Source of the DNA: an uncultured candidate division Zixibacteria bacterium
Lineage (GTDB): Bacteria; Zixibacteria; MSB-5A5; GN15; FEB-12
Direction: 5' to 3'
Assembly: GCA_963806185.1 (NCBI GenBank)
Contig: CAWDXE010000006.1
Span: 175,024 to 239,023 of the forward strand
Length of the DNA: 64,000 nt
Part shown: positions 13,401-52,746 of the stretch, in pieces
How the letters are laid out: each line of letters starts with the position of its first letter
How positions within the stretch are numbered: position 1 is the first letter of the stretch
Program-made: the position numbers and the translations under genes
Notes under the pieces: generated by a model
What the model was told of the DNA's origin: nothing
The model's database searches: none
Seen by the model: the letters and a program-made list of their open reading frames with translations, nothing else

Positions 13401-13593
13401 TCTGCATGATGGGTGTTGTGGCGTCGACGTCGGTTGCCGTGTCGGCCACGGTGAGGGTCAACCCTTCGTTGATCGACTGTGGGCCGATCGGGTTGAGCAC
13501 GGGAGGAGCGGTTTGCGCTCCCGCAGTCATCGCGAACGCCGCGACGATCAGAAGTACCAGCAAACTCAAGCGTGTATTCATAAGGTAAGTCAT
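4492..13593 (-). CDS. 3033-aa secreted protein with ~30 tandem ~93-aa putative Ig/cadherin-like repeats and C-terminal dockerin
   Basis: Signal peptide; repeat consensus NQDPILAAIGA..NEN..L.F.VSASD.D.TTPTLTTSALPTGA.F.DN.NGTGTFNWTP.F.QAG.YSVTFYA.DG.ATDSEVVAITV; C-term RGDIDNNSRYTMNDMAYLISYLF...ADVDNDGSVNILDVTYLINFLY. Start could be 13581. Confidence 0.92.
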   Translation of the reverse strand: MTYLMNTRLSLLVLLIVAAFAMTAGAQTAPPVLNPIGPQSINEGLTLTVADTATDVDATTPIMQTGPLPANASWVDHGDGTGTLTFTPDFTQAGIVNVIFIALDPVTSDADSETVAITVNNVNQDPILAAIGAQNVNENVALNFGVSASDPDATTPTLTTSALPTGAGFTDNGNGTGTFNWTPDFTQAGGYSVTFYATDGTATDSEVVAITVNNVNQDPVLAAIGAKSVNENVNLNFGVSASDPDATTPTLTTSALPTGAGFTDNGNGTGTFNWTPTFAQAGPYSVTFYASDGTATDSEVVAITVNNVNQDPILAAIGAQNVNENVALNFGVTASDPDATTPTLTTSALPTGAGFTDNGNGTGTFNWTPTFAQAGGFSVTFYATDGTATDSEVVAITVNNVNQDPILAAIGAKGGAEGALLTFGITASDADGTTPTLTTSALPTGAGFVDNGNGTGTFNWTPDFTQAGGYSVTFYATDGTATDSEVVAITISGSNQAPVLAAIGAQSVNENVNLNFGVSAADADATTPSLTTSALPTGAGFTDNGNGTGTFNWTPTFAQAGPYSVTFYASDGTATDSEVVAITVNNVNQDPVLAAIGAKNGAEGSLLTFVTSASDPDGTTPSFTSSTLPTGATYIDNANGTATFSWTPDFTQAGGYSVTFRGTDGVATDSEVVSITISGTNQAPVLAAIGAKSVNENANLNFGVSASDPDATTPTLTTSALPTGAGFTDNANGTGTFNWTPTLAQAGPYNVTFYATDGTVTDSEVVAITVNNVNQDPVLAAIGAKNVNENVNLNFGVSASDPDATTPTLTTSALPSGASFVDNANGTGTFNWTPTFAQSGPYSVTFYASDGTATDSEVVAITVNNVNQDPILAAIGAKGGVEGALLTFGITASDADGTTPTLTTSALPTGAGFVDNANGTGTFTWTPDFTQAGGYSVTFYATDGTATDSEVVAITISTTNLAPILAAIGAKSVNENVNLNFGVSASDADATTPTLTTSALPSGASFIDNANGTGTFNWTPTFAQAGGYSVTFYASDGIATDSEVVAITVNNVNQDPILAAIGAQNINENVNLNFNVTAADADGTTPSFTTSTLPSGATFIDNGNGTGTFNWTPTFAQAGSFNVTFRATDGTATDSEVVAITVNNVNQDPVLAAIGAKGGLEGALLTFGVTAADADGTTPSFTTSTLPTGAAFLDNGNGTGTFSWTPDFTQSGVYPVTFRATDGVATDSEVVTITIAGTNLDPVLAAIGAKNVNENVNLNFGVSASDPDATTPTLTTSALPSGASFVDNANGTGTFNWTPTFAQSGSFNVTFYASDGIATDSEIVAITVNNVNQDPILAAIGAKGGVEGALLTFGITASDADGTTPTLTTSALPTGAGFVDNANGTGTFTWTPDFTQAGGYSVTFYATDGTATDSEVVAITISTTNLAPILAAIGAKSVNENVNLNFGVSASDADATTPTLTTSALPSGASFIDNANGTGTFNWTPTFAQAGGYSVTFYASDGIATDSEVVAITVNNVNQDPILAAIGAQSISENTNLNFGVSANDPDGNSPVLTTSALPTGATFIDNANGTGTFNWTPGFTQAGGYSVTFYASDGTVTDSEVVAITVSNTNQLPVLAAIGGKAINEGVNLAFTITAADADGVIPTLTSTAVPTGATFIDNGDGTGTFNWTPDFTQSGGYSVTFYASDGVATDSEVVAISVLDAGNQAPILAAIGNQTVSENVALNFAVSAADPELTPLTLTTSTLPANAGFVDNGDGTGSFAFNPDFTQAGVYTVTFIATDAGLAADSETITITVTDLNRNPVLAAIGAQSTTENTLLTFSTSASDPDGTTPTLTTSTLPAGAVYTDNGNGTGSFSWTPNFTQAGFHTVRFYASDGITADSEDVVITVLEAGNQPPVFATRADTSIAEGAVLSFSVSATDPDGGIPSLTIENSPTNVAFVDNGNGTGTFTFSPDFTQAGLYPIRFIATDASLGADSIVVNVTVLNTNRLPVLFPIGPYTTTEGAALSFDITAADQDGVMPVLSTSTRPSGANFADHLNGTGTLSWTPGFTQAGVYNVTFYATDGQYPADIDSEIVVITVAEAGNQRPVLALIGNRAGVEGGLLTFNVTAADPDGTLPTFSASPLPTNATFTNNGNGTATFVFSPDFNQEGSFLLTFVATDGVLADSELVQITIFPSGNVPPIFTVVADTLVNEGDSLILNVSASDPDAPTVAPRLSVSTTLLHYTFVDHNDGTGTLTYKPGYFDAGIDTVRFFAIDYGTPIQTGVEIVQVTTNDVNRPPTFAAAGPFGVKVNDPLVFTLTAYDSTDAVAGNRIFLSAVNMPTGATFTDNGDNTGTFRFTPTAGQAGTNVVNFLAVDQGVPSKSTLIAINVVVKTVNLPPVLAAIGTKAVTEGQSLVVNVSGSDPDDGAPVLRTGALPANATFVDNLNGTAVFTFNPSFTQAGLYAVTFEAYDGFAVDKEVVFIQVIEAGNQTPVFDSIPASPAITEGQTGLFRIKVHDPDGGTVTMSLLEIVPAALITFADSGNGLGTFYMAPNYLQAGSYTITIRATDGTVADTIDIVLTIVEAGNQPPVLANITDKSVRELNALNFNISATDVDATNYPLLTANPLPAGATFTDNRNGTGTFSWAPTDTDSGFYQVFFKAEDFDVAGVADSQLVNISVLDTNRAPVIITYGARTMFEGDTLIYLVNAFDFDGTIPKIRARLDGVTDSLATNMSIADSGNGSALLRFIPSYSQGAVSPGTFYYVRFYAKDGADSSIVQDALAPVQIAVLDRNALPIVTVAGGEGTKTIAEGVTLSFVVSATDPDGGATLPTLSAQNMPVGATFVGTTNVKTFSFTPTFSQAGIYTVRFIAVDSKAARDTAIIQIDVTEAGNQAPVFSTVLADTTNCPANVITNVVARAADPDLQTLTMTATPIVTNAGFVDSLNGTGNYIFLPDNAQIGLVSQIRIIATDPGGLADTATTVIRVVAFLRGDIDNNSRYTMNDMAYLISYLFRQGPEPVTMVAADVDNDGSVNILDVTYLINFLYFNGPQPPR
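9007..10968. repeat. Near-identical ~570-bp intragenic direct repeat (9007..9573 vs 10402..10968) within a 279-bp tandem array
   Basis: Offset 1395 = 5 x 279; antisense ORFs 9107..9382 and 10502..10777 have identical translations. Confidence 0.85.
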
Positions 13594-30939: not shown

Positions 30940-31034
30940 ATCGACCGGACTATCCACAAAATATCTCTTGACAAAGACGTGGACTCGCATTAGGGATGTA
31001 GTTGTCATCGTCTTCGCGACGATGGGGAGGTTTC

Positions 31035-32111
31035 ATGACATCAAAGTGGCGAAAGCTATCACGGGCCGCGATCCCGCTCTGTTGGGTGGCGGTTGCCGTT
31101 TGGTTGGCGGGGTGTGATGATGATTTCGTCGTGCCTCCAGTGGGGCCGGAACCGGCTCACTTGTACTTCTTTGAAGGGAGCTACAACGATCAGATATTTC
31201 TGTTTGACCCGGTCGCCCTCAGTCTCGACTCGTTCATCCTTCCCGTGCTGGCACGCTGGGATATACGTGTGTCTCCCGATGAAAAGACACTCTACGTACC
31301 AAACGACGAGGGTCTGCATGTCATCGATCTTGCATCACGTCAAATGACGCAGACGCTCCCGTTTCTCGGATTCTGGCGGGTTGCTGTTTCGCCCGACGGT
31401 GCCTTTCTGGCCGTATTGGGCGACAGCCTGTTAGTCGTGCGAACCAGTGATTACTCGATCATTTACTCTGACACCAATTCGGCCGTCTGGTGGGACCAGG
31501 GTCGGTTCAGCAGGGACAGCAAGCACTTTTTCTGCGCGAAGTTGTATTACTCACCTCCTGGACCACGGGCCTACGGTTCCGCTTTTCATTTGGACCTGAG
31601 GAAGAGGCCTTATCGCACCTCGGAGCGGGAACGCCCGGAAGGCGCCGTCCGCATGGTCGTGCCTTCGCCGCGCCTTGATCGATGGCTGCTTATCATCGGC
31701 GGCGGCCGGTTTGCCGTGCTGGATACTCTGGGTGATTCGCTGATTTATGACGAAACGCTGCCGGGTCCGGCAGGTGCAGTGGTCGTGACTCCGGACGGCA
31801 GGAGAGTCGTCTATTCGTATCCCGGCAATCTCGGCTATCCGACTCAAGCGCATTCTTTCCGCATATATGATCTCTGTAGCAATCAGCGCGTAATGGAAGT
31901 TGAAACCTGGTTTGTCCGATCGGACAGCACGGTCGATTTCTTTCAACCATCATCTATCGTTTTCACCAGCGATGGAGATCACATGTACTGCACCGGGTTC
32001 CTGAACGAGACAGGCTTTCTCATATTCGATGCGCGGACATTCGAGCAGGTATCGCAATTCGATTTCACACCGCGCCAGGCGGGATCACTTACTACCGTCG
32101 GCGTGCAATAA
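31035..32111 (+). CDS. Beta-propeller (YncE/YVTN-like) lipoprotein
   Basis: ATG 31035 with GGAGG; lipobox WLAGC; repeated VSPDE/VSPDG/VTPDG/FTSDG blade motifs. Confidence 0.8.
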   Translation: MTSKWRKLSRAAIPLCWVAVAVWLAGCDDDFVVPPVGPEPAHLYFFEGSYNDQIFLFDPVALSLDSFILPVLARWDIRVSPDEKTLYVPNDEGLHVIDLASRQMTQTLPFLGFWRVAVSPDGAFLAVLGDSLLVVRTSDYSIIYSDTNSAVWWDQGRFSRDSKHFFCAKLYYSPPGPRAYGSAFHLDLRKRPYRTSERERPEGAVRMVVPSPRLDRWLLIIGGGRFAVLDTLGDSLIYDETLPGPAGAVVVTPDGRRVVYSYPGNLGYPTQAHSFRIYDLCSNQRVMEVETWFVRSDSTVDFFQPSSIVFTSDGDHMYCTGFLNETGFLIFDARTFEQVSQFDFTPRQAGSLTTVGVQ

Positions 32112-34339: not shown

Positions 34340-35464
34340 TCAAGTATTCGCCGCCTTCTTCAGGCCCGGGGCCATGGCTTCCTTAAAGGGCTCCAGCGCT
34401 TTCGATACGTATTCCGGATCCTCGCAATGGATACCCTGCTCGTACTCCATCCGATACGTGCAGAAAGGATTGTTGGCGCGACTGCCGGTAGCCGAAACCG
34501 ACGTGGTCGCACAGCCACCGCGACAGAGCGGCAGATACTTGCAGTCGTAGCAGAATCCATCGGCCGTGTCGCGGGTGAACTTGCGATTGTAGGACGCAAA
34601 ATTCGGGTCATTCCAGATTTCGGTGAATGAGCGTTTGCGGATGTTCCCCTCGACGAATTGTTCCGGCATCGACAAACAGCCTTTCACGTCGCCGTTGGAT
34701 TCAATCCCCGCCACACGCGTGCCGGCAAAGCAGCCGAAGGTCGGGTCGCCGTCGCGCAGTTCGTACCCTTTGCAGCCGTAAAAGCCGATGTTTTCGCCGA
34801 CGTCGATGCCGATATGTTCGTCTTTTTTCAGTTCGAGCAGCTTGTCGATAAACTGCGGGAACTTGTCGATGGTCAGCACGTAGTTGGCGACTTCCTTCAT
34901 GCGGCCGGTAGCCGTGGTCATCTGGATGCGCCAGGTGGGGCACTTGATGGCCACGAGCAGGTCACGAATGGCATCGAGCTCGCCCAGGTTAATGTTGGAG
35001 ATCTGAGTGACGGCGCAGAACTTCATGCCGCGCTCGGAGAACATTTTCATGGCGGCATAGGCGCGTTCGAATGAGTCAGGGCGCTGGCGGATGTAGTTAT
35101 GCGTTTCGCGCGTACCGTCGAAGCTGATTCCGATCTGGTCAAACTTCACTTTCTGCATCTGGTCGACCACCTCGGGTGTGACGGCATAGCCGTTGGAGAT
35201 AATGGCTGTCTTAATGCCTCGGCTCTTGGCATGAAGGGCCAGTTTTTGCCAGTCTTTGCGCAGCAGGGGTTCGCCGCCGGAAAGGGTAATGATTTCGGTG
35301 CCGAGACCGGCGAGTTCGTCGATCAGCTTCAGCGCCTCATCGGTGGTCAATTCATCGGGGCGGGCCTTGCCGGCCGAGGTGCCGCAGTGGATGCACCGCA
35401 TGTTGCACGCGAACGTGGTTTCCCACACGACATAGTGCGGAAAGAACTTAAAATCAGTAGTCAT
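34340..35464 (-). CDS. Radical SAM/SPASM enzyme, PlpX-like (splicease-type) peptide maturase
   Basis: Start ATG 35464 with AAGGAG; VWETTFACNMRCIHCG, TQI, WRIQMT..GR, GENIGFYG, CFAG..AGIESNGDVKGCLSMP, CYDCKYLPLCRGGC, NNPFC; blocks resemble PlpX as recalled, not searched. Confidence 0.85.
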   Translation of the reverse strand: MTTDFKFFPHYVVWETTFACNMRCIHCGTSAGKARPDELTTDEALKLIDELAGLGTEIITLSGGEPLLRKDWQKLALHAKSRGIKTAIISNGYAVTPEVVDQMQKVKFDQIGISFDGTRETHNYIRQRPDSFERAYAAMKMFSERGMKFCAVTQISNINLGELDAIRDLLVAIKCPTWRIQMTTATGRMKEVANYVLTIDKFPQFIDKLLELKKDEHIGIDVGENIGFYGCKGYELRDGDPTFGCFAGTRVAGIESNGDVKGCLSMPEQFVEGNIRKRSFTEIWNDPNFASYNRKFTRDTADGFCYDCKYLPLCRGGCATTSVSATGSRANNPFCTYRMEYEQGIHCEDPEYVSKALEPFKEAMAPGLKKAANT

Positions 35465-35469
35465 AGGAG

Positions 35470-36810
35470 CTACTCCTTTGCGGCGGGCTGAGCCTGCCGG
35501 TATCGTGAAAGAGCAATCATTTCCAGCATTTCCGGGAGATTGTATTTCCAAGCCTCACAAACATCGGTGTTTAGTTCATTCGCCCGTTCGCGGCGCGCGG
35601 GGCAACCGCCCATGCAGATGGGCAGGATGTTGCACCCGGTGCATTCCGAGATATCGAACGGGTTGAACTGGTACAACGACAGAAAGTTCGGGTGATGGTA
35701 ATCTATGTCGTGGCGAATATTGCCGGCGGTCTTCGACTTGTCGCCGATAAAATTGAAACAGCGATAGATGTCGCCGTCCTGGTCGAGCACGAAACCATTC
35801 TTGGTCTGCGCCATGCAGAAATGCGACATTGGCTGCGGCAGTTTTTCCACCTTTAAACCGTGCTGCAGCATGACGCGGAAGAAATTCGATTCGATCTTTG
35901 AGAAGTCGGAGAAGGTGTAACAGTCCTCGGCAATATTACTGCAGACCTCGGTGGCCGGGTCGAGGCAGCCGAAGTAGACGTGGATGCGATCGCTGATTCC
36001 CGCGACCTTGAATTCGTTGAGCATCTCGACAATGGTATCCTCCGTGAAGGACCGATCAATATTGACGCGGACGCCAATGCCGAGCCTGGTCGAGGCGTAG
36101 GCGATATTCTTGAGAATACGATCGAAGCTGGGCTTACCATTCTTGAGTGGACGTTTTACGTTGTGCAGGCGCGAAGGGCCGTCGACGGTCACCTGCACGG
36201 TCGCCACTTTGAGGGCCCGCAGTTTGTCGACCGTGGCTTCGTCGAGCAGGTAGCCGTTGGTGATCATGCTGGCGGTGTAGTCGAAGGTGTGCTCAGCCTG
36301 CAGGGCAAAGACGGCCTGGGTGAGGTACTCGATAGTATCCATGGCCAAAAGCGGTTCGCCGCCGTACCAGGAGATGCTGAGTCCTTTGCATTTGGCAATC
36401 CGTTGTTTGACGAAAGCGATCAGGGCGTCAGCCGTTTCGCGCGACATCTTCCCTTTCTTGTTCGTCTCATAACAGTACGGGCAGGCCATATTACAGGCCA
36501 TGGACGGCGCGACGACGAGGCCCAGGGCCTCCTCGGTTTCGCGGGCCATCAGATGCTGATCGTGCAGGGTGGCCAGCTCATCGAGGTCCTCGGGGCGCGT
36601 GAAACCGCCATAGTTCATCTGATTGAGAAGTTGTTCTTCCTCGGTTGTGAACACGGCGGCAGGACGGTCGGTGAGTTTATGGGCAACCAGCTGATAGGTC
36701 GCGAAGTTTTCCGGGTTCATGACCGCCAAGGCGCCGGAGCGAGCGTTGTAGGCCAAGTACATGCCGTCACGCCAGGGCACGATGACGTTGTAGCGAGAGA
36801 GCTTTTGCAT
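35470..36810 (-). CDS. Radical SAM/SPASM peptide maturase with N-terminal RRE-like extension (Cys-rich peptide/thioether type)
   Basis: KLSRYN..LAYNARSGA N-terminus; CNMACPYC; WYGGEPLL; SPASM CMAQ..C..CTGCNILPICMGGCP..C. Confidence 0.88.
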   Translation of the reverse strand: MQKLSRYNVIVPWRDGMYLAYNARSGALAVMNPENFATYQLVAHKLTDRPAAVFTTEEEQLLNQMNYGGFTRPEDLDELATLHDQHLMARETEEALGLVVAPSMACNMACPYCYETNKKGKMSRETADALIAFVKQRIAKCKGLSISWYGGEPLLAMDTIEYLTQAVFALQAEHTFDYTASMITNGYLLDEATVDKLRALKVATVQVTVDGPSRLHNVKRPLKNGKPSFDRILKNIAYASTRLGIGVRVNIDRSFTEDTIVEMLNEFKVAGISDRIHVYFGCLDPATEVCSNIAEDCYTFSDFSKIESNFFRVMLQHGLKVEKLPQPMSHFCMAQTKNGFVLDQDGDIYRCFNFIGDKSKTAGNIRHDIDYHHPNFLSLYQFNPFDISECTGCNILPICMGGCPARRERANELNTDVCEAWKYNLPEMLEMIALSRYRQAQPAAKE

Positions 36811-37038
36811 CGTCTGTAGTGGTCCCTTTTGTTATCTATTGGCGCCCAACGGTGAGCAGGTACCCGGTCTCGTCGTTGTCGCCTGATTAATTAACAGTCA
36901 CCAGCAGGACTTCGCCCCACTTGGTGCATGGCCACCCGGAGAAGAAAGGCGAAATTGGGGGAGGCTACTGTCGTCGATTGAACGACGAACGGGAACCTCC
37001 CTTTCCTGTTTGTGCCAGGTCAAATCGTTGTTACGCGA

Positions 37039-37164
37039 TTAGACCTCGACGCCGTAGAGCGGCACGCCATAGAGCGGCTTAATTCCGCACTTGCTAGGGC
37101 AGAGGAACTTGAGCGTGCAGACGCTCGGGCCCTGAACAACGGACGGATCAATGATGAATACCAT
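37039..37164 (-). CDS. 41-aa RiPP precursor MVFIIDPSVVQGPSVCTLKFLCPSKCGIKPLYGVPLYGVEV
   Basis: Manual translation; strong AAGGGAGG RBS; three Cys and tandem PLYGV; first gene upstream of two rSAM genes. Confidence 0.88.
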   Translation of the reverse strand: MVFIIDPSVVQGPSVCTLKFLCPSKCGIKPLYGVPLYGVEV

Positions 37165-37378
37165 CAAGGACCTCCCTTGGTTTTAGGGTGTAGCACATTG
37201 CAGAACAATCCCGTCGGAGAATCCGACAGGATATTTGGTAGTTAACATCACGGTCCTCTATTCTTTGCGCACACCCGAACGACAGGGCGCAGGAATTCGC
37301 AAAGTGAGGTAGGATCCGTGTGCTCATATATTTTGGTTAGGGAGGGCCTGAGCCCCCTCATGCTCCAGTATTTGTCTC

Positions 37379-37407
37379 AAAATGTCGACATGTCACCGAA
37401 TTGTCAA
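37379..37407 (-). promoter_or_regulatory. Possible sigma70 promoter of RiPP cluster 1
   Basis: TTGACA-17 bp-CATTTT on minus strand; weak -10. Confidence 0.4.
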
Positions 37408-38072
37408 GACGAAAATGGGCAGAGGCACCCATTACTCTACCTTCAGAGCATGTTCGTCGAGATGCAACTCAATCCAGCGTAAGCAATTGAGGGAGGCCCA
37501 GGCGAGCCGAGAGCGCGCATCGACCTCCCTTGAGATGTCTGTGATCAGCAAGCCGCCTTTATCAAGTGGTCGGCACGCCGTACAGCGGCTCGTAGAAATC
37601 GAGCGGGCACTTCGTCGTGCACACAATGATCTTCAGAGGGCACGGTTTCGGACCCAGGACAGTTGAGGGGTCAATAATGAAAACCATCTTCGGCCTCCAG
37701 GTTTGAGGGTTAATGCATTGCAGAGCGTCTTGCCGCACGGGCCGGCACGACGGTGAAATTCAAAAACTTTGTCCCGCTTGCGGTAAAGCCGTCAATTGGC
37801 TGCGAGGAGTGAGAGGTGCAATACCGCATAAAGCGATGTGTGCTCCAAAGAACCAATTGAGGAGAGAACTCCTCAGTTGCCGGTTTGACGTACCAATTTG
37901 ATCAAAAGATATCATCAAAAGTGGTGTCTGGTCGCGAGCTTGTCAAGGACAAACGTAGGTATGAGCGCCGACTTCTCCATGATACTACGAGGAGAAATGC
38001 GCGACCGAGACTCGAGTGTGAGTTGAATTGTGAGGATAACTATTTATCGAGCAACAAGGTAGAGCATGCGGA

Positions 38073-44404: not shown

Positions 44405-45037
44405 ATGGCTTCATTGGTTGACAAATATTTTTCAAAGGCCGACTTCGACGCCATATCGTCGGCGGTGGTCGCGGCCGAACACCGAACCTCCGGCGAACTG
44501 GCGATCAAGCTGGCCTCGCATACGCGCGAATGGCTGACCGAGCGGCTGATCTATTCGTCGGTGCTGGCGATCCTGTGCCTGTCCGTTGCGCTGGTGCTCA
44601 CGCGTGAGCAAAACTGGGGCCTGTATTACAATTTCAGCCAGGCTCTCATCGGCGGCATCATCGGCTTTGCCGTCGGTTTCTTTGTCTTGCCGCTCTGGCT
44701 GCAAAATGAAACACGGCGGCGGCAAGCGGTCTGGAACCGGGCGGTCTTTGAGTTCTCTCGTCTGACACCGACCAAAGGGCATACCGGCGTGCTGATTCTC
44801 GTCTCGATGGAAGAGCGTCAGGCAGCGATTGTCGCTGACCGGAAGATTGCCGAAAAGCTCCCCCCCGACTACTGGGACAAGCCACATGCAATGATTATGG
44901 AGGGGATCGGCAAGAGCGAGCATGCTGAGGGAATCATTGCGGCCCTGGACGAAATCGGCAAACGTATGGCGGAGTTTTTCCCGCGCGCCGATGATGATGT
45001 GAACGAGATTCCCGATCGGCCGGAAGTGATAAAGTGA
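44405..45037 (+). CDS. TPM-domain membrane protein (lemA operon)
   Basis: AEHRTSGE, TGVLI, IVADRKI, FFPRADDDVNEIPD. Confidence 0.85.
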   Translation: MASLVDKYFSKADFDAISSAVVAAEHRTSGELAIKLASHTREWLTERLIYSSVLAILCLSVALVLTREQNWGLYYNFSQALIGGIIGFAVGFFVLPLWLQNETRRRQAVWNRAVFEFSRLTPTKGHTGVLILVSMEERQAAIVADRKIAEKLPPDYWDKPHAMIMEGIGKSEHAEGIIAALDEIGKRMAEFFPRADDDVNEIPDRPEVIK

Positions 45038-45204
45038 GTTGCTTCCAATCTCCGTTCGAGTCGGTGCGGTTTTTGTGCGGTCAGGCCGAATGGCCTGGCC
45101 GCTATTTTTTTGGGGTAAGAGTCATTTACCTTTGGACGAAATCTTGGCACTCGTGACCTGCATGTCAGGCTTCTTGATCAATTGGAAATAGAAGCCTGAC
45201 CTAC

Positions 45205-45285
45205 TCCGTACCCCACCGATTTACGGTGGGGTATCTTCTATGGGGGGGGATTCCCGAATACCTCACCGCATAGACGGTGAGGTAC
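45205..45285. repeat. REPIN-like element (two inverted GTAC-hairpin units); copy at 52881..52962
   Basis: GTACCCCACCGATTTACGGTGGGG ... CCTCACCGCATAGACGGTGAGGTAC in both copies. Confidence 0.8.
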
Positions 45286-45583
45286 AAACATCAGCGCAGT
45301 CGACCGCTTTCTTGCTCTCACCCTTCCGCACCCCCGACCAATACCACCAGTTGCACTTCTCTTTGGGGAGTTTTGGATTCTTCGCCTGTGCCACCGCCGC
45401 CCGGAAAACGTCGAGCACGCAGATATCCTGTTTCTGTCCGGTAAGACGGTTGAGCCGGGCGTAGAGATGGTCGGGGTTCTTGCGCGCGAGTTGGGCGACA
45501 CTGGTGACGCCCAGTCTCTCGAAATCGCCAAGCATTGCTTTGCCGATGCCGCAGAGATCGGCCAGTGTGCGATCATCTTTCAT
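45263..45583 (-). CDS. Helix-hairpin-helix 'pathogenicity locus'/Cdd1-like small protein
   Basis: L.GIGKAM..DFERLGV..VAQLA..NP..LY.RL...QDICVLDVFRAAV...WWYWS. Confidence 0.75.
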   Translation of the reverse strand: MKDDRTLADLCGIGKAMLGDFERLGVTSVAQLARKNPDHLYARLNRLTGQKQDICVLDVFRAAVAQAKNPKLPKEKCNWWYWSGVRKGESKKAVDCADVCTSPSMR

Positions 45584-45711
45584 AGGTTAGTTCTCCATCC
45601 TGTGTTTGAGCAAGGCAATATAATGGATGAGGATGCGGGAACGGATCACATGTTTATCTCGGGTTTCTCCGTGCGGCTGCACGGCACTCCGGAATCCGGC
45701 CTGCAGCCCTA

Positions 45712-46713
45712 TCATGCGTCGGCGAATTCGGAAAAATCGATGTCCACAAACGGCAGGCCGGCTTCGATTCGCTCGCGGCGACCGGCCATGAACTGCAATA
45801 TCCAGTCGTCGTCCGGAAGATTACTGACATCGAAACTTCGGTAGATCACCCCGTACAAATCGATCTCGCGAAGCGTGAGAAAGCGGGCGAGCGTCGGCAG
45901 CCACTCCGGCGCCAGTCGATTGTGCCTGCGGTACCCCTCGAGGAAAGGGGGCAGAAAGTGGCGGGTCAGCGCCGGTTTATCTTCGGCCACAGCTAAGACG
46001 TAGAACAACACAATGGCGATGTCGTTGGCGAACCAGCTGTAGGTGCAATCGTCAAAGTCAAACAGGGTGATCTTTCCCTGATCGTCGACAAAGAAATTCC
46101 CGCTGTGCGCGTCCTGATGGATCAGACCGTACGTCTCCCGCGTAATCGCCAACTTCGCGAGCGATGCCAACAGATCGCGAAACCGTTCCCGAACAACCAC
46201 TTGGTCGGGCGGCAGAAAATGAATTATATCCAGCATCGCCGGATCATTCCAGTGGCCGCGTCGCCACTCGGGGCGTGAGGGCTCGTACTCCTTGGTGAGC
46301 GCGTGCATCCGACCGATGAGCTCGCCGTAGGTGGTAAGGAAGGCGGGTGTCCAGTGCTCCCGTTTCAGCCTCTCCCCCTTTGCCCTTTCAAAAGCAGTCG
46401 CAAGGAACTGGCCACCGTGGCCGTCGTCAATCGCCTCAACCAGTTCACCATCATCAGACTCGATCGCCCGGGCCACGCCGACTCCATGGGCATGCAGGTA
46501 GTTGAGCCAGTCGACCTCGCTGTTGATCAGCGCCCTGGTGCGCCGAATGCTGTGCGCGAGGCGGAGGATATACCCCCGGGACTGGCGGTCAAACTCATAT
46601 ATAAAGCTCTCGAACCCGTCGAGGAGCCGGATCGCCTCCGACCGGATGCTGTAGCGCCGCATGGCCTGGGCCAGAATTTCGTCGGTAAATCGTTCTTTAA
46701 TGCGATGTTCCAT
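45712..46713 (-). CDS. Phosphotransferase (APH/homoserine kinase type II fold)
   Basis: GLIHQDAHSGN, LFDFDD, WFANDIA. Confidence 0.88.
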   Translation of the reverse strand: MEHRIKERFTDEILAQAMRRYSIRSEAIRLLDGFESFIYEFDRQSRGYILRLAHSIRRTRALINSEVDWLNYLHAHGVGVARAIESDDGELVEAIDDGHGGQFLATAFERAKGERLKREHWTPAFLTTYGELIGRMHALTKEYEPSRPEWRRGHWNDPAMLDIIHFLPPDQVVVRERFRDLLASLAKLAITRETYGLIHQDAHSGNFFVDDQGKITLFDFDDCTYSWFANDIAIVLFYVLAVAEDKPALTRHFLPPFLEGYRRHNRLAPEWLPTLARFLTLREIDLYGVIYRSFDVSNLPDDDWILQFMAGRRERIEAGLPFVDIDFSEFADA

Positions 46714-46826
46714 AACTACTTTTCAAATTCCGCTTGGCTCAATATAGTCAACGACTTGCGTCGATGGCGAGCCAAATAATCGACTGGTCTTGCGGGGGGG
46801 GCGGTCGATGCACGTGCTGATTAATG

Positions 46827-46855
46827 TTGACACGTTTGCCCGCTCTCCCTAATTT
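46827..46855 (+). promoter_or_regulatory. sigma70-type promoter of RiPP cluster 2
   Basis: TTGACA-17 bp-TAATTT, ~190 nt upstream of the precursor ATG. Confidence 0.6.
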
Positions 46856-47044
46856 AGAAAAAGTAACAACCATCATGTCACCGAGCACACGTGACTGAAT
46901 TTGTGACGAGTTCTTCTTATTCATTTCGGCAGTCAGATCCCGGACTAACGGGATGTTCGGCGAAGGTATCTTCGCCTGGGCATGTTGTTGCCTGGGTTGA
47001 CGGCATAGTAACTAACTGTTAAAACCCCTGAAAGGAGAGGCGAG

Positions 47045-47146
47045 ATGAAACTCATCAGACTACCAGGGATCGACCCGATCGAGAAGCCCCATTACATCAT
47101 CTGCAGCATTAATGGGCCGTACAAGATTATCTGCTCGAAATACTAG
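47045..47146 (+). CDS. 33-aa RiPP precursor MKLIRLPGIDPIEKPHYIICSINGPYKIICSKY
   Basis: Manual translation; AAAGGAGAGG RBS; repeated P-x-x-IICS; directly upstream of two rSAM genes. Confidence 0.85.
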   Translation: MKLIRLPGIDPIEKPHYIICSINGPYKIICSKY

Positions 47147-47170
47147 CAGGTAGTTTTGTCAAGTTGACGC

Positions 47171-47200
47171 TGTGCGCCGGCAGTTGACTGTCGGCGCATA
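47171..47200 (+). promoter_or_regulatory. Stem-loop after precursor gene (mRNA stabiliser/attenuator-like)
   Basis: TGTGCGCCGGCAG..CTGTCGGCGCATA stem with two G-U pairs, no U tract. Confidence 0.55.
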
Positions 47201-47255
47201 TGCTAATCCCAGTGCCGGTTCGGGCGCCGCACGAAATACTTCCCTCGGGGCTAAT

Positions 47256-48593
47256 ATGAAACCTTCGCCGTTTAACCACTTCTTTTCGATCAGTGCCGGC
47301 CGGACAATTCTGGCCTATAATGCCTTCTCTGGCGCCTTAGCCGAAATTGAAAGCGAAAATTATGACCGCGTCGTCCACCTGCTCAATCATCCCGATCAGG
47401 CGCAGTCGGCGCAGGATCAGGAATACCTTGAGTATCTCAAACAGGGCGGCTTCCTCATCGCCGATCCGGTCGACCAAATCACGGCTCTCCAAATGCACGG
47501 ACGGGCGGTCCGGAACCAATCCGCCGCGCTAACCCTGACAATCGCTCCGACACTCGCGTGCAATTTTGACTGCGACTACTGCTTCGAGTCCCGGTCAAAC
47601 GTGCGGATGTCGGAGGAAACGCAGGCGGCCCTCATTCGGTTCACCGATTACCAGCTCCGGCGGGCCGATGCCCTCCGCGTCTGCTGGTTCGGCGGCGAAC
47701 CGACCCTCTGCTTTTCAATGATTGAGAAGATGCAGACGCAGCTTCTCGAACTGGCGGCCAAGTGGCGGACCGAAGTCGTTCCGGGACGGATCATTTCCAA
47801 CGGGTACCTTCTGGACGCCGCCATGGCGACCCGCCTCAAAGAACTGCTGATTACCGATGCGCAGATCACGCTGGACGGTCCTGAGACGGTGCACGACGGT
47901 CGACGCAAATTGCGGAACGGCAAAGGGAGTTTTGCCCGCATTATCGAGAACCTGCAGGCGACCGTCGACACGCTGTCGATCACCATTCGCGTCAACATCG
48001 ATCGCGGCAATGTCGACTCGGCGTGGGAGGTGGTCGAGTATCTCCACAAACTGGGTATTCTGCCCAAGGTGCGGCTGACGTTCGCCCAGGTGCAATCGAC
48101 CGGCGCGGCCTGCTCCAATATCCGCGATCGCTGTTATGATACGGAGGATTTCGCGCGCTCAGTGGTCATGCTGTACCAGCGCCTGATGGCGGCAGGGATC
48201 GGACGGGTTGATTATCCGCGTGCGCTCGGCGGTGTGGCGTGCGGAGCGGTGGCCGGCGGCCAGTATGTCATCTCACCAGTCGGACAACTCTTCCGCTGCT
48301 GGGAGGATTTGTCGATGGACGGCCGCCGCTCGATCGGCGATATCTTCTCGACGGAAACCACCGACCAGCAGAAGGCGGTCGCCGCGGCATACCATTCGTG
48401 GGATCCGGTCAACCTCTCGGAATGCAAATCGTGCAATGTCCTTCCGATTTGTCTCGGCGGCTGTCCGCTGCACGCGATGGAGACGGCCAGCACCACCTGC
48501 GGCCTCTGCTCGGCATGGAAATACAATCTCGGCGACATGCTCCACATGGCCTACACGGCCGATGTCGCGACGGCCCAGGAGCAAAGCCGATGA
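47256..48593 (+). CDS. Radical SAM/SPASM peptide maturase, paralog of 35470..36810
   Basis: Start MKPSPFN..LAYNAFSGA; CNFDCDYC; WFGGEP; CSNIRDRC; CKSCNVLPICLGGCP; CSAWKYNL. Confidence 0.88.
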   Translation: MKPSPFNHFFSISAGRTILAYNAFSGALAEIESENYDRVVHLLNHPDQAQSAQDQEYLEYLKQGGFLIADPVDQITALQMHGRAVRNQSAALTLTIAPTLACNFDCDYCFESRSNVRMSEETQAALIRFTDYQLRRADALRVCWFGGEPTLCFSMIEKMQTQLLELAAKWRTEVVPGRIISNGYLLDAAMATRLKELLITDAQITLDGPETVHDGRRKLRNGKGSFARIIENLQATVDTLSITIRVNIDRGNVDSAWEVVEYLHKLGILPKVRLTFAQVQSTGAACSNIRDRCYDTEDFARSVVMLYQRLMAAGIGRVDYPRALGGVACGAVAGGQYVISPVGQLFRCWEDLSMDGRRSIGDIFSTETTDQQKAVAAAYHSWDPVNLSECKSCNVLPICLGGCPLHAMETASTTCGLCSAWKYNLGDMLHMAYTADVATAQEQSR

Positions 48594-49618
48594 ACACAAC
48601 GGAGCGAGCACCGAAAGTCATCGGCTGGGAGATCACCCGCTGGTGCAATCTCACCTGCCCACATTGCTACAGCGCCGCCGCAAAACGGCCGCACGACGAG
48701 TTGACCACCGATGAATGCAAACGGGCGATCGACGCCATGGCGCGAATAGGCGTCGGCACGATTGGCTGGACCGGCGGGGAACCGCTCTTGCGCGAGGATC
48801 TCGAAGAACTGACCGCGTATGCGTCGGCCCAAGGAGTGAAGGCAAATATCACGACCAATGCCGTCCTGCTGGATGAACGTCGCGCGCTCAGTCTGCTCGA
48901 GGCCGGTAATCGGGCGATTCAGATCAGTCTCGACGGCTCAAACCCGGCGATGAGTTACCGGACCCGCCGCACGACCGAAGAGGAATTCCATCGCATCATT
49001 GAGGCCATACGGATTTGTAAGAAGCTGAATATCCGCACGCATCTGGCGACCCTTATCGGCCAGGAGACGCTTGATGATGTCCGCGAGATGGTCAAGCTCG
49101 CCAAACGTGAGGGGGTTGATGCTATCCGATTCTGCGGTTTTACTCCGTCGGGACGAGGGAAACGCAAAGAGGTGAAGGACCGCCTGCAGTTCACTGAAGA
49201 ACTGGACGGGTTGCTTGAGTTCATCCATGAAACGCTGGCGGACACGTCCATCACGATGATGTTCGACGTAAGTTTCGGCCCAGTGCCGCCCGATTACAGT
49301 TTTCATAAATGTGTCGCCGGGATGGAGACATTCTATCTGAAATCCAACGGCGACGTCTTCCCCTGTACGGCGCTTACGGACAAGCAGTTCAAAGTGGGGA
49401 ATATTCGGCAGACACCGCTCGAGGAAATCTGGGCGTCGGATGCGATGCAGGCGATGTCGCGCCTTCCCGACGAGCGCATTCACGGTCATTGCCGTGACTG
49501 CGAGAATCTGTCGAACTGTCACGGGGCGTGCAAGGGATCGGTGTTGGCGTTTACCGGTGACTTGAATGCGTCGTTCCCACCCTGTTTATATCAGGCGGCG
49601 AAGTGCGCGTCGCGATGA
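48590..49618 (+). CDS. Radical SAM/SPASM enzyme (PqqE/NirJ-like fold), second maturase of cluster 2
   Basis: ATGA overlap with upstream gene; WEITRWCNLTCPHC; GGEPLLRED; CVAG..NGDVFPC; CRDCENLSNCHGAC. Confidence 0.85.
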   Translation: MNTTERAPKVIGWEITRWCNLTCPHCYSAAAKRPHDELTTDECKRAIDAMARIGVGTIGWTGGEPLLREDLEELTAYASAQGVKANITTNAVLLDERRALSLLEAGNRAIQISLDGSNPAMSYRTRRTTEEEFHRIIEAIRICKKLNIRTHLATLIGQETLDDVREMVKLAKREGVDAIRFCGFTPSGRGKRKEVKDRLQFTEELDGLLEFIHETLADTSITMMFDVSFGPVPPDYSFHKCVAGMETFYLKSNGDVFPCTALTDKQFKVGNIRQTPLEEIWASDAMQAMSRLPDERIHGHCRDCENLSNCHGACKGSVLAFTGDLNASFPPCLYQAAKCASR

Positions 49619-49649
49619 CGAGAAATTCCAATTGTCGCACGTACCCCCT

Positions 49650-49755
49650 CCGGCCCTCACCCCAACCCTCTCCCGGAGGGAGAGGGGGTAAGAGGGGCAG
49701 CCGTGACGTGCGAATACGGATGGAATCCGCATATGACGTCATCGCGAGGCTCGCT
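49650..49755 (+). repeat. 106-bp REP-like composite element, copy of 34090..34195
   Basis: Sequence match to reverse complement of 34090..34195. Confidence 0.8.
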
Positions 49756-49948
49756 TTCCTCCACCTCGTCATCCTGAATCATTCCCCGAGATCGTCATCC
49801 TGAATCATTCTTATGATTCAGGATCTCAGTGTCCACAGAATTCACCTACGCGTCATCGCGAGGCTCGTTTCGAGCCGTGGCGATCTTTCAGTTCTCTTCT
49901 GTGGCCGGCGTACGTCTCGTGCGCCGGCGACGTCCCACCGGCCCTCAC

Positions 49949-51252
49949 TGTGCAAGCCGAACATGGTTTACACGGTAAACCGGATACATGGTTTACACTT
50001 TTTCTTGTTGTCCATGCCAGCTCTCAGGTCGCTGGATGGTAAAGCTTCGCTCGTTCAAATAGCCCAGCAGGTGGAAGCTGTACCGGATCTCCCAGCGGTC
50101 GGCTGCGATTTGTCGGAACGAGACCGGTTCCTGGGCAAGGACATCGGAAACGTAGATCAACCGACCGCGCCATTTGATCTCGCCGTTCTGACGCACCTGC
50201 CGTACGATGACGCCCGCAGGATACGGAATGTCCGGCAGCTGGTCAGGATACTGACGGGGTGATGCCTCATACAGGCTCCCCGGCGTCTGTCGTCCCAACG
50301 CTTCGTGCGAACGCTCCCAGTTGAAGTCCTCGACCCAGCGGTCAAACTGTCGCTGCTGAGCCGCCATCGTCGTTTGGATGGGATGTACGCCACTTTCCAA
50401 CGAGCGATGCATCCGTTCATGGCGGCCGTTCTGATTCGGTTTTCCCGGTTTGATCCGCTCGGGCCGAATGCCCAGCCGAATCCACCACTTGGACAGCTGG
50501 GTCACGCCACCCAGAGCCAGCGAAGCAAACGGTCCGCCGTTATCCGTCCGGATCGCCTGCGGCAGGCCGTACTCACGAAACACCCATTCAAACCACGGCC
50601 GCACCAGGCGATACTGCGGCCTGGCCATCCCTCGACAGGCCAGCACAAAGCGACTGTAGTTGTCACTGATCGTCAGCGGGTAACACCGCCGACCATTACC
50701 CAAGGCGAAATCCCCCTTGAAGTCGGCACTCCACTGCGCGTTGACCTGTAGGCACCGACCGAACGGGGCGGTATCGGCCGCGACCCGGCGTCGGCGACGT
50801 CGCGCCTGGACCAACCCTTCGCGACCCAAGATCTCACCGACCGTGCTGTCAGCAGGCCAGCGCTCGGACGAATGCTGTCGCCGTAGCCAGTCCACCACCT
50901 TCTTCGGACCCCAGTCCAGATGGGCCAGCTTAAGGCCAATTATCATCTCACGCTGTCGCTCTGCTATCGTGGCCGGATGCCCATGCGGTCGTCGCGACTG
51001 ATCCACCAGTCCCCACGGACCATAGGCCTCACACCGCCTAATCCACTTGTCCCCCGTCGGCCGACTGATCGCATAGCTGCGACACAACGACGTCTTGGTG
51101 TACCGCCCGCTCAGCCAATCCGTGATAAACCGAACGCGTTCTTCCACCACACTAGTCTCCTTCCACGCCATCGGCAATTCCTCCTTGCCGACAAACTAAT
51201 GTGTAAACCATGTTCCCGGTCTATTCTGTAAACCATGTTACCGGTTTGTACC
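49949..51252 (-). mobile_element. IS481-family insertion sequence
   Basis: Ends TGTGCAAGCCG.. / ..CCGGTTTGTACC with twin TGTAAACCATGT subterminal repeats at both ends; apparent CAC target duplication. Confidence 0.88.
49993..51171 (-). CDS. IS481-family DDE transposase
   Basis: MAWKETSVVEER; WSADFKG, TISDNYSR, IRTDNG, GRHERMHR; AAGGAGG RBS. Confidence 0.93.
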   Translation of the reverse strand: MAWKETSVVEERVRFITDWLSGRYTKTSLCRSYAISRPTGDKWIRRCEAYGPWGLVDQSRRPHGHPATIAERQREMIIGLKLAHLDWGPKKVVDWLRRQHSSERWPADSTVGEILGREGLVQARRRRRRVAADTAPFGRCLQVNAQWSADFKGDFALGNGRRCYPLTISDNYSRFVLACRGMARPQYRLVRPWFEWVFREYGLPQAIRTDNGGPFASLALGGVTQLSKWWIRLGIRPERIKPGKPNQNGRHERMHRSLESGVHPIQTTMAAQQRQFDRWVEDFNWERSHEALGRQTPGSLYEASPRQYPDQLPDIPYPAGVIVRQVRQNGEIKWRGRLIYVSDVLAQEPVSFRQIAADRWEIRYSFHLLGYLNERSFTIQRPESWHGQQEKV

Positions 51253-51669
51253 CACCCCAACCCTCTCCCTAAAGGGAGAGGGAGTAAGAGCGGCGTGTGA
51301 AGTTGAGAGAATTCTCGCAATTGGCATAAGTGTCCCATGGATTCCGGACCTTCGGTCCGGAATGACAATTACCTTCTCTGTCAGGCTCACAAGGACCCTG
51401 ACCTGCCCTTGTACCGATCGGGCAGGCGAGGACGCCTGCCGCGCACATGAATTTGAGTCCGCTCTTCAAAAAGCATTCAAGAATCTCCATCATGTTATGT
51501 CACAAGGTAATGGCGAAGAGGCGCGAGGCGTACGGGGTTCACCTTGGCAAGTTTACTGACAGATTCTGTCAGTGATCGACCGGACTGTCCACAAAATATC
51601 ACTTGACAAAGAGGTGGGCACGCATTAGGGATGTAGTGGTCATCGTCTTCGCGACGATGGGGAGGTTTC

Positions 51670-52746
51670 ATGACATCAAAGTGGCGAAAGCTATCACGGG
51701 TCGCGATCCCGCTCTGTTGGGTGGTGGTTGCCGTCTGGTCGGCGGGGTGTGATGATGATTTCGTCGTGCCTCCAGTGGGGCCGGAGCCGGCTCACCTGTA
51801 TTTCTTCGAAGGAAGCTACAACGATCAGTTGTTTCTGTTTGATCCAGTCGCGCTCAGTTTAGACTCATTTATCCTGCCCGTGTTGGCTGGCTGGGATATG
51901 CGAGTGTCTCCCGATGAAAAGACACTTTACGTACCAAACGACGAGGGTCTGCATATCATCGATTTGGCGTCGCGCCAGATGACGCAAACGCTTCCGTTTC
52001 TCGGATTTTGGCGGGTTGCTGTTTCGCCCGACGGCGCCTTTCTGGCCGTATTGGGCGACAGCTTGTTGGTCGTGCGAACCAGTGACTATTCAATCATTTA
52101 CTCCGACACCAATTCGGCTGTCTCGTGGGACCAAGGCCGCTTCAGCAGGGACAGTAAGCACTTCTTCTGCACGAAGCTCTATTACTCCCCGCCTGGACCA
52201 CGAGCCTACGGTTCCGCTTTTCATTTGGATCTGAGGAAGACGCCTTTTCGTACCTCGGAGCGGGAGCGTCCGGAAGGTGCCATCCGCATGGTCGTGCCTT
52301 CGCCGCGCCTTGATCGTTGGTTGCTTATTATCGGCGGCGGACGGTTTGCCGTGCTGGATACACTGGGTGATTCGCTGATTTATGACGAAACGCTGCCGGG
52401 TCCGGCAGGTGCAGTTGTCGTGACTCCGGACGGCAGGAGAGTCGTCTATTCGTATCCCGGCAATCTCGGCTATCCGACTCAAGCGCATTCTTTCCGCATA
52501 TATGATCTCTGTAGCAATCAGCGCGTCATGGAGGTTGAAACGTGGTTTGTGCGATCAAATGGTTCCACCGTCATGTTTAAACCGTCGTCCATAGTCTTTA
52601 CCAGCGACGGTCGTCACATGTACTGCACCGGGTTCCTGAACGAGACTGGCTTCCTCATATTCGATGCGCGGACATTCAAGCAGGTATCGCAATTCGATTT
52701 CACACCGCGCCAAGCATGGTCGCTTACTACTGTTGGCGTGCAATAA
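51670..52746 (+). CDS. Beta-propeller lipoprotein, close paralog of 31035..32111
   Basis: Nearly identical protein; lipobox WSAGC. Confidence 0.85.
   Translation: MTSKWRKLSRVAIPLCWVVVAVWSAGCDDDFVVPPVGPEPAHLYFFEGSYNDQLFLFDPVALSLDSFILPVLAGWDMRVSPDEKTLYVPNDEGLHIIDLASRQMTQTLPFLGFWRVAVSPDGAFLAVLGDSLLVVRTSDYSIIYSDTNSAVSWDQGRFSRDSKHFFCTKLYYSPPGPRAYGSAFHLDLRKTPFRTSERERPEGAIRMVVPSPRLDRWLLIIGGGRFAVLDTLGDSLIYDETLPGPAGAVVVTPDGRRVVYSYPGNLGYPTQAHSFRIYDLCSNQRVMEVETWFVRSNGSTVMFKPSSIVFTSDGRHMYCTGFLNETGFLIFDARTFKQVSQFDFTPRQAWSLTTVGVQ

Follow-up and report, generated by a model that had tools for sequence, protein, structure and literature searches.

A widespread radical SAM peptide cassette of Zixibacteria without a named class and with a predicted isoleucine recognition motif

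The closest described systems are radical S-adenosylmethionine (SAM) enzymes that modify ribosomally made peptides that are altered after translation (RiPPs). Spliceases cut tyramine out at XYG (PMC11414181); the enzymes EpeE and OspD epimerise Ile and Val by way of a Cα radical that is quenched by Cys (PMC13012085); ItfD joins C7 of Trp(i) to Cδ of Ile(i+2) (PMC11002830); and the cyclopropyl synthases TigE and TvgB, defined by a GYW motif, act on Ile and Val in repeated motifs (PMC10878394). The system considered here occupies positions 47045 to 49618 of a stretch of 64,000 nucleotides, hereafter the window, from an uncultured candidate division Zixibacteria bacterium (assembly GCA_963806185.1, contig CAWDXE010000006.1, positions 175,024 to 239,023, forward strand), and consists of a precursor peptide followed by two radical SAM/SPASM enzymes, R1 and R2. 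It is a real and widespread RiPP cassette without a named class. Comparison with a sister cassette makes it quite likely that R2 acts at a conserved Ile motif of the peptide, and the chemistry that ranks first for it, with a rough probability of 0.35, is Cα epimerisation of that Ile.

A conserved cassette and its peptide motif

The precursor (47045..47146, forward strand; MKLIRLPGIDPIEKPHYIICSINGPYKIICSKY) is a predicted peptide of 33 aa with the leader MKLIRLP, the conserved Cys20, and Ile18 and Ile28 in two x-x-Ile-Ile-Cys units. R1 (47256..48593, forward strand; 445 aa) is a maturase with a RiPP recognition element (RRE), radical SAM and SPASM domains that resembles the Clo7bot and TIGR04463 families, and R2 (48590..49618, forward strand; 342 aa) is an RRE-less radical SAM/SPASM enzyme of a family without a name. 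The two reading frames overlap in ATGA, in keeping with the translational coupling described in the initial annotation. Homologues of R2 (E <= 1e-70) occur in 48 of the 285 genomes of the phylum, its own included. Besides the window, 55 loci were analysed, 52 from the phylum search and three (L002, L082, L083) from two further scans with generic patterns, among whose 160 listed loci four held close R2 homologues and one, L004, a 36% identical enzyme, the rest being outgroups. An R1 homologue lies upstream of R2 in 53 of the 55, the remaining two having at most 201 nt of upstream DNA, and a small open reading frame (ORF) with an MK(F/L)I leader and a ribosome-binding site (RBS) is present at 49, the six misses falling at contig ends or an N gap. 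In the nearest relatives the precursor precedes R1, and in more distant ones it sits between the two enzyme genes; flanking genes are conserved among close kin only. The same three genes recur in two of the 301 Acidobacteriota genomes searched (L002, L284), and no match was found in 301 genomes from the phylum of L023; of two matches from the phylum to which L047 belongs, L286 was dropped for its resemblance to a mycofactocin maturase. Precursor, R1 and R2 thus very probably constitute a functional RiPP unit. No recurring exporter or protease was found beside the cassette in the analysed loci, so that the product would need genes at other places for its release. Some loci (L195, L197, L242, L245, L246, L277) hold variant cassettes with two R1 copies or a third radical SAM gene and several precursors.

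The family comprises 61 distinct peptides, the window's own included, with GTG and TTG starts allowed and one false ORF (L231) removed; a set of 63, which retains two probably spurious ORFs, served for counts in which peptides were selected by leader and RBS only. In that set I-[ILMYSVQ]-[PC] occurs in 59 of 63, I[IL][PC] in 47 and YG in none, figures to be read with the leader rule having been written after the peptides had been viewed and with related peptides not being independent. Within the genome I[IL][PC] has a background of 19 among 1378 RBS-led ORFs of 20-60 aa, of which the window's precursor is the sole one with two IIC units, and no second copy of it was found there by tblastn. Cys20 is invariant in 27 aligned peptides. 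The alignment by MAFFT set the family Ile on Ile29; intermediate cores, FPIIC beside FPILP, place it on Ile28, and this register is used here. A double IIC core is present in six peptides including that of the window, and among these six the core mismatches at codon positions 1, 2 and 3 number 51, 40 and 106. The fixed elements are an upstream Cys (Cys20 here) and the Ile of x-x-I-[IL]-[PC], in which Pro (46) or Cys (19) occupies +2 and the residue at -1 varies. Position -2 is aromatic at 53 of the 65 motif sites (F 34, Y 11, H 5, W 3) and otherwise L (7), I (3) or P (2). The initial annotation had seen a repeated Tyr/IICS core: the two IIC units are indeed there, but conservation does not extend to Tyr, His, Ser or the terminal Tyr (only 6 of 61 family peptides end in Tyr), and a core centred on Tyr and His gives way to one of Cys and then x-x-Ile-[Ile/Leu]-[Pro/Cys], the aromatic residue at -2 being missing from 7 of 61 peptides.

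An indication of which enzyme acts where comes from a natural control. R1 homologues, found in 93 of the 285 phylum genomes, fall into two tiers, and all 37 lower-tier loci that were fetched, taken mainly from the top of about 100 listed, carry a splicease-like enzyme in place of R2, as does cluster 1 of the window. The latter, at 34340-37690 on the reverse strand, comprises a pair of Cys-rich PLYG peptides at 37039-37167 and about 37562-37687, together with an R1 paralogue 32% identical to R1 (35470-36810) and the splicease-like enzyme (34340-35551). Among peptides of the sister cassette xYG is present in 71 of 77 and I[IL][PC] in 5, and the two kinds of peptide share a register in which PLYGVP faces PLYIIC or FLILPP. 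In both, Lys is found at Cys+3 more often than any other residue, and the last Cys most often stands seven residues before the Gly (36/71) or the Ile (34/58). R1, the type of leader and the Cys are therefore shared by the two cassettes, and the second enzyme and the C-terminal motif are swapped together. Because shared and swapped parts separate so cleanly, R1 would act on the Cys and R2, with good probability, on the Ile motif.

The same homology of cassette, leader type and core, in which only the second enzyme and the motif differ, could be taken to mean that R2 also performs a splice-like backbone rearrangement, excising an aliphatic amine at the Ile motif and leaving an α-keto-β-amino acid. 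A myxobacterial protein that carries both 13 Y[GA] and ILP/VMP motifs beside an R2 relative, with no splicease-like gene within the 15 kb fetched (L283, below), would fit such a reaction. Nonetheless it appears quite unlikely, as R2 lies outside the splicease clade and lacks the splicease Gln and GENIG blocks, the known spliceases excise tyramine at XYG, and a strict register would place the splice Tyr where the family has no constant residue and where 15 of the 65 sites have Pro.

The two enzymes and the proposed reaction at isoleucine

R1 probably forms a Cys thioether, likeliest from Cys20 and perhaps also from Cys30, as its domains and its partner peptide suggest: together they present the architecture of ranthipeptide and sactipeptide systems, with RRE, radical SAM and SPASM domains beside a Cys-containing peptide. 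The first candidate for the residue joined to Cys20 is Asn23, a position at which most relatives have Lys. The N-terminus of R1 forms the three-strand, three-helix RRE fold in the AlphaFold2 model (predicted local distance difference test score, pLDDT, 92), in profile comparison with the PDB it matches CteB best (111 bits), and anSME, CteB and TigE rank close together in Foldseek. The best NCBIfam scores are those of TIGR04334 (Clo7bot; 284 bits, cut-off 600) and TIGR04463 (282, cut-off 525), and among the 25 models shown no cut-off is reached except that of the SPASM domain model; the characterised thioether families likewise score below theirs (PapB 125/340, SCIFF 70/425, QhpD 66/453 bits, score over cut-off). 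The R1 types of the R2 and splicease cassettes are sister clades with twelve invariant cysteines in common, nine of them outside the SAM site. A third R1-like gene of the genome (L001 4464-6469; G000:C1 about 316400-318500, reverse strand) has its N-terminus in a different frame, by frameshift or assembly error; after it come not R2 but two short ORFs, Cys-rich and with leaders that read MKW(F/V)VEP.

For R2 none of the 25 NCBIfam models shown reaches its cut-off. The top scores, AhbD 170, NirJ2 161 and MftC 160 bits, would by themselves suggest a cofactor enzyme of the AhbC/AhbD/NirJ/MftC type next to an incidental small ORF, but they fall far under the cut-offs of 500, 500 and 265 (the haem-enzyme models of the AhbC/AhbD/NirJ test gave 170/500, 152/650 and 154/515), R2 forms a separate clade, further genes are conserved beside the cassette in close kin only, and precursors are present at 49 of 55 loci; this explanation is largely refuted and highly improbable. 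More specifically, a haem enzyme was rejected on scores, clade and the lack of conserved haem-pathway neighbours, and an MftC-like use of the terminal Tyr on 160/265 bits and the 6 of 61 peptides that end in Tyr. At least 119 homologues at 50-69% identity are found among the best 120 of 1402 matches, and a tree of 102 sequences unites R2 with its wider relatives in a single clade (FastTree support 1.0), separate from splicease-like enzymes and from sampled AhbC/AhbD/NirJ-like sequences; the tree is midpoint-rooted, drawn from a random subset of loci and contains no characterised enzyme, and its outgroup labels are presumed from motifs. The initial annotation had named two outcomes as telling against it, a small ORF that is not conserved and a second enzyme that groups with cofactor or haem enzymes; neither holds, since the small ORF is conserved and R2 stands outside the AhbC/AhbD/NirJ-type enzymes sampled.

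The clade is marked by R-[FY]-[CS]-G-F-x-P-x-G on strand β6 and D-x-x-x-G-P before the SPASM domain. R2 itself, 29% identical to the splicease-like enzyme of cluster 1, carries IRFCGF and FDVSFGP where the latter has WRIQM and GENIG; this absence, as well as that of YG from the precursor, had been recognised from the sequence at the outset. R2 possesses a full seven-Cys SPASM domain, and its nearest solved fold is PqqE (template modelling score, TM, 0.67; 21% identity). A Cys that is no cluster ligand, Cys182, recurs in 115 of the 119 homologues and in 47 of the 52 proteins from the loci; it sits on the strand E178-183 of the R2 model, in the alignment column of the Gln of the splicease WRIQM block. 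A plasmid search gave nothing above 31% identity among the 10 matches listed, and an Atlas search gave generic SPASM clusters only. In several proteins the R2-clade domain is fused to a second radical SAM domain (P0125, P0127, P0128) or to one of B12 type (P0142, probably P0141), and P0153 joins a splicease-like domain to an R1-like one.

In the proposed pathway the RRE of R1 would bind the leader and R1 would tie the core Cys into a thioether ring, while R2 might abstract the hydrogen at Cα of the fixed Ile within x-x-Ile-[Ile/Leu]-[Pro/Cys], with Cys182 on strand β6 returning a hydrogen so that Ile is inverted to D-allo-Ile; the window peptide would offer the motif twice, at Ile18 and Ile28. 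A reaction confined to one residue is favoured because the motif needs a β-branched residue and not always a Cys or aromatic partner. The aromatic residue is nonetheless frequent enough to support a second possibility, doubtful as it is, namely that R1 makes the thioether and R2 closes a three-residue cyclophane between the aromatic residue at i and the side chain of Ile at i+2, with the topology of ItfD and the triceptides (in the window peptide His16-Ile18 and Tyr26-Ile28). Aromatic residues number 53 of 65 at -2, compared with 12 at -3 and 18 at -1; a suitable site exists in 54 of 61 peptides; ItfD makes just such a link; and R2 has the seven-Cys SPASM domain. The cyclophane is opposed by the seven peptides without an aromatic site, by Leu at -2 of the second unit in three of the six double-IIC peptides, and by the absence of cyclophane synthase models from R2's top NCBIfam matches, save WgkB and DynA at low scores.

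Distant relatives in myxobacteria bear on the same choice. An R2-clade enzyme, 31-36% identical to R2, occurs in 3 of the 401 Myxococcota genomes searched (one of the loci, L004, belonged to the query alignment), and no R1 was found in the fetched stretches of the three loci. Each of the three enzymes directly follows a large Cys-rich protein that appears to be exported and bears [IV][LM]P motifs (L004 71-1384, L282 7334-8317, L283 7948-9894), in 11, 6 and 3 copies where shuffled sequences average 0.4, 0.6 and 0.16, although one of the three L283 copies precedes the likely start codon. By position and motif, these proteins are probable substrates of the R2 relatives. The residue at -2 is aromatic at 8 of 11 sites in L004, as a cyclophane would have it, but at only 2 of 6 in L282, and four L282 sites lie in a Cys-free repeat; the Cys-free sites and the four of six without an aromatic residue at -2 together favour a partner-free reaction on a β-branched residue. 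Val takes the place of Ile at some myxobacterial sites, which excludes Cδ chemistry there. At L285 an outer-clade enzyme with Ser at position 182 follows an ORF (7169-7729) of nine KLAPEP repeats and one final ILP, the repeats being devoid of aromatic and Cys residues, which again speaks against the cyclophane.

Two further reactions have to be weighed against epimerisation. Oxidation within the Ile itself (-2 Da, to dehydro-Ile or a cyclopropane) would require just the β-branched residue, as the motif does, and has a precedent in the action of TigE and TvgB on Ile and Val in repeated motifs; it is unlikely all the same, given that the GYW motif is missing from P0001, P0002 and all 52 R2 locus proteins and that R2 resembles TigE only weakly (E 8e-10). 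A cyclopropyl synthase as such was rejected on the missing GYW. Alternatively, R2 might be a divergent sactisynthase that links the upstream Cys to Cα of the Ile or a neighbour, with R1 doing something else. The Cys-to-Ile spacing of 6-8 residues in 52 of 58 would suit this, as would a StsB model score of 154 bits (cut-off 625) and the match of R2 to StsB at catalytic-site-proximal positions 1, 2 and 4 (Tyr, Thr, Ser; PMC10288494). Yet positions 3, 5 and 6 differ from StsB, an equal spacing is found in the splicease cassette, which has R1 without R2, and several myxobacterial sites have no nearby Cys, all of which renders a sactionine improbable.

Epimerisation of the Ile has its own difficulties, and these should be set against it together. 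A full seven-Cys SPASM domain, as R2 has, is usual in oxidative cross-linkers. At position 182, where the hydrogen donor is proposed, Ser is found at two Zixibacteria loci with motif-bearing peptides (L213, L225) as well as in an outer subclade, and Thr or Val in two others. Similarity of R2 to EpeE is limited to the SAM-binding start (profile positions 11-105, E 1.8e-5), the aromatic residue at -2 in 53 of 65 sites suits the cyclophane equally well, and the myxobacterial enzymes, at only 31-36% identity, may act otherwise than R2. As to the thioether, R1 has no characterised close relative, and its extra invariant Cys286 and Cys293 could conceivably fill the open iron site of thioether formers.

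A broader and distinctly tentative proposal is that R2 founds a family of motif-directed, scaffold-independent backbone-editing enzymes, whose substrates, recognised at x-x-Ile-Leu-Pro, would range from tiny thioether peptides to large exported myxobacterial proteins with up to 11 sites. In its boldest form this would entail an unprecedented reaction, for example the splicing of an aliphatic residue or D-residues at multiple sites in a folded lipoprotein, and would make the family an aliphatic counterpart of the tyramine spliceases.

Transcription signals and neighbouring genes

The promoter, RBS, 33-aa ORF and stem-loop of the initial annotation are all present. A σ70-type promoter-like site, TTGACA-17-TAATTT, lies at 46827..46855 (forward strand); its -10 box TAATTT is weak and the consensus promoter scanner did not list it, but eight of ten related cassettes have the pattern upstream, its background rate being 0.02 per 450 nt. 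The precursor's RBS is AGGAG at 47033..47037 (forward strand), and GGAG/GAGG-type sites precede the family precursors, a feature that belongs to the rule by which they were selected. Between precursor and R1 a 15-pair hairpin (47169..47203, forward strand) has counterparts of similar shape and varied sequence 3' of the precursor in all seven relatives checked; the 110-nt spacer folds with only a modest gain over shuffles (z -1.5; 18 of 200), it has no U-tract, and no Rfam match was found within window positions 45000-52000. The hairpin probably stabilises or attenuates the precursor transcript.

Two metatranscriptomes from two studies each contain one contig over the precursor, at 46943-47226 (8 differences) and 46948-47134 (0 differences), and neither has contigs over R1 or R2, which does not count against their transcription. 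These contigs are a weak hint, because strand and level are invisible in them and the samples may include DNA. The only difference listed for contig X1 within the hairpin (G to A, window position 47172) turns a G-U pair into A-U.

Just past the cassette lie a short element (about 49650-49690) matched by many unrelated contigs and an IS481-like transposase (49993-51177, reverse strand; 191 bits, cut-off 224). A lipoprotein-like gene without a convincing Pfam match is present in two near-identical copies about 20 kb apart (31002-32111 and 51670-52746, forward strand), each downstream of one of the window's two RiPP clusters. A secreted protein of 3033 aa composed of many similar repeats (4492-13593, reverse strand) stands among large surface proteins at 509-23743.

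Significance and relation to known systems

An uncharacterised radical SAM clade that comes with a predicted short recognition motif has practical implications: since the cassette supplies enzyme clade and motif together, the chemistry of R2 is testable by one co-expression. The joint swap of second enzyme and target motif, splicease with PLYG or R2 with xxILP, is likewise a natural experiment in pathway evolution inside one genome. If the myxobacterial proteins are substrates, they would represent the editing of large proteins at a tag of 3-5 residues, useful for protein engineering as the spliceases were. More broadly, a widespread natural-product family is added to an uncultured phylum. The literature search found no description of the R2 family and no paper on radical SAM RiPPs of Zixibacteria; subscription papers lay outside it, and the family may therefore sit unnamed in published networks. 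In the available part of PMC10288494, the precursor table has no ILPP, YIIC, MKFIE, MKLIR or PLYG row. According to PMC12703449, FlmE and OhkG belong to orphan DD(I/V)LF clusters with unknown products.

The view of the initial annotation that no known RiPP class fits has held, a defining feature of each of spliceotides, Clo7bot, mycofactocin, cyclopropyl synthases and haem enzymes being absent. Of the modifications that it named, Cys thioethers, made by R1, and epimerisation stay plausible. With the spliceotides (PlpX/PcpX/RhaX tyramine spliceases) the cassette shares an RRE-less SPASM enzyme paired with a motif near the C-terminus of the peptide; unlike them it has no XYG in any of the 63 R2-family peptides, R2 belongs to another clade without the splicease active-site blocks, and the maturase models score 116/592 (TIGR03913) and 92/725 bits (TIGR04103). 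The R1 and splicease cassette of Zixibacteria, itself undescribed and exemplified by cluster 1, is closer, with a homologous peptide scaffold and a sister R1. Ranthipeptide maturases (CteB, PapB) and the Clo7bot/TIGR04463/CefB group resemble R1 in RRE, radical SAM and SPASM domains and in short Cys-containing precursors, but R1 lies under every family cut-off shown (284 against 600 for TIGR04334), has an extra invariant Cys pair and is accompanied by a second enzyme, and none of 27 peptides matches a relevant NCBIfam precursor model. ItfD and the triceptide synthases correspond in the aromatic(i)/Ile(i+2) spacing of most family peptides, yet the aromatic residue is not invariant, and the GYW that defines TigE and TvgB is missing. 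The branch of MftC, AhbD, NirJ2 and PqqE provides the nearest named profiles and, in PqqE, the nearest solved fold, but R2 is below all cut-offs and in a separate clade, without a mycofactocin, haem or pyrroloquinoline quinone context. The epimerases EpeE, OspD and PoyD, for their part, target Ile and Val through a Cα radical and a Cys donor, and the R2 motif is likewise centred on Ile or Val and the extra Cys largely conserved; EpeE shows no family-level similarity to R2, and it has a twitch domain and the proteusin epimerases no auxiliary cluster (PMC13012085), whereas R2 has a full SPASM domain. Taken together, the sequences indicate that the cassette works like a two-enzyme radical SAM RiPP pathway that has only its architecture in common with the ranthipeptides, and that the R2 clade is new, with a predicted recognition motif of its own.

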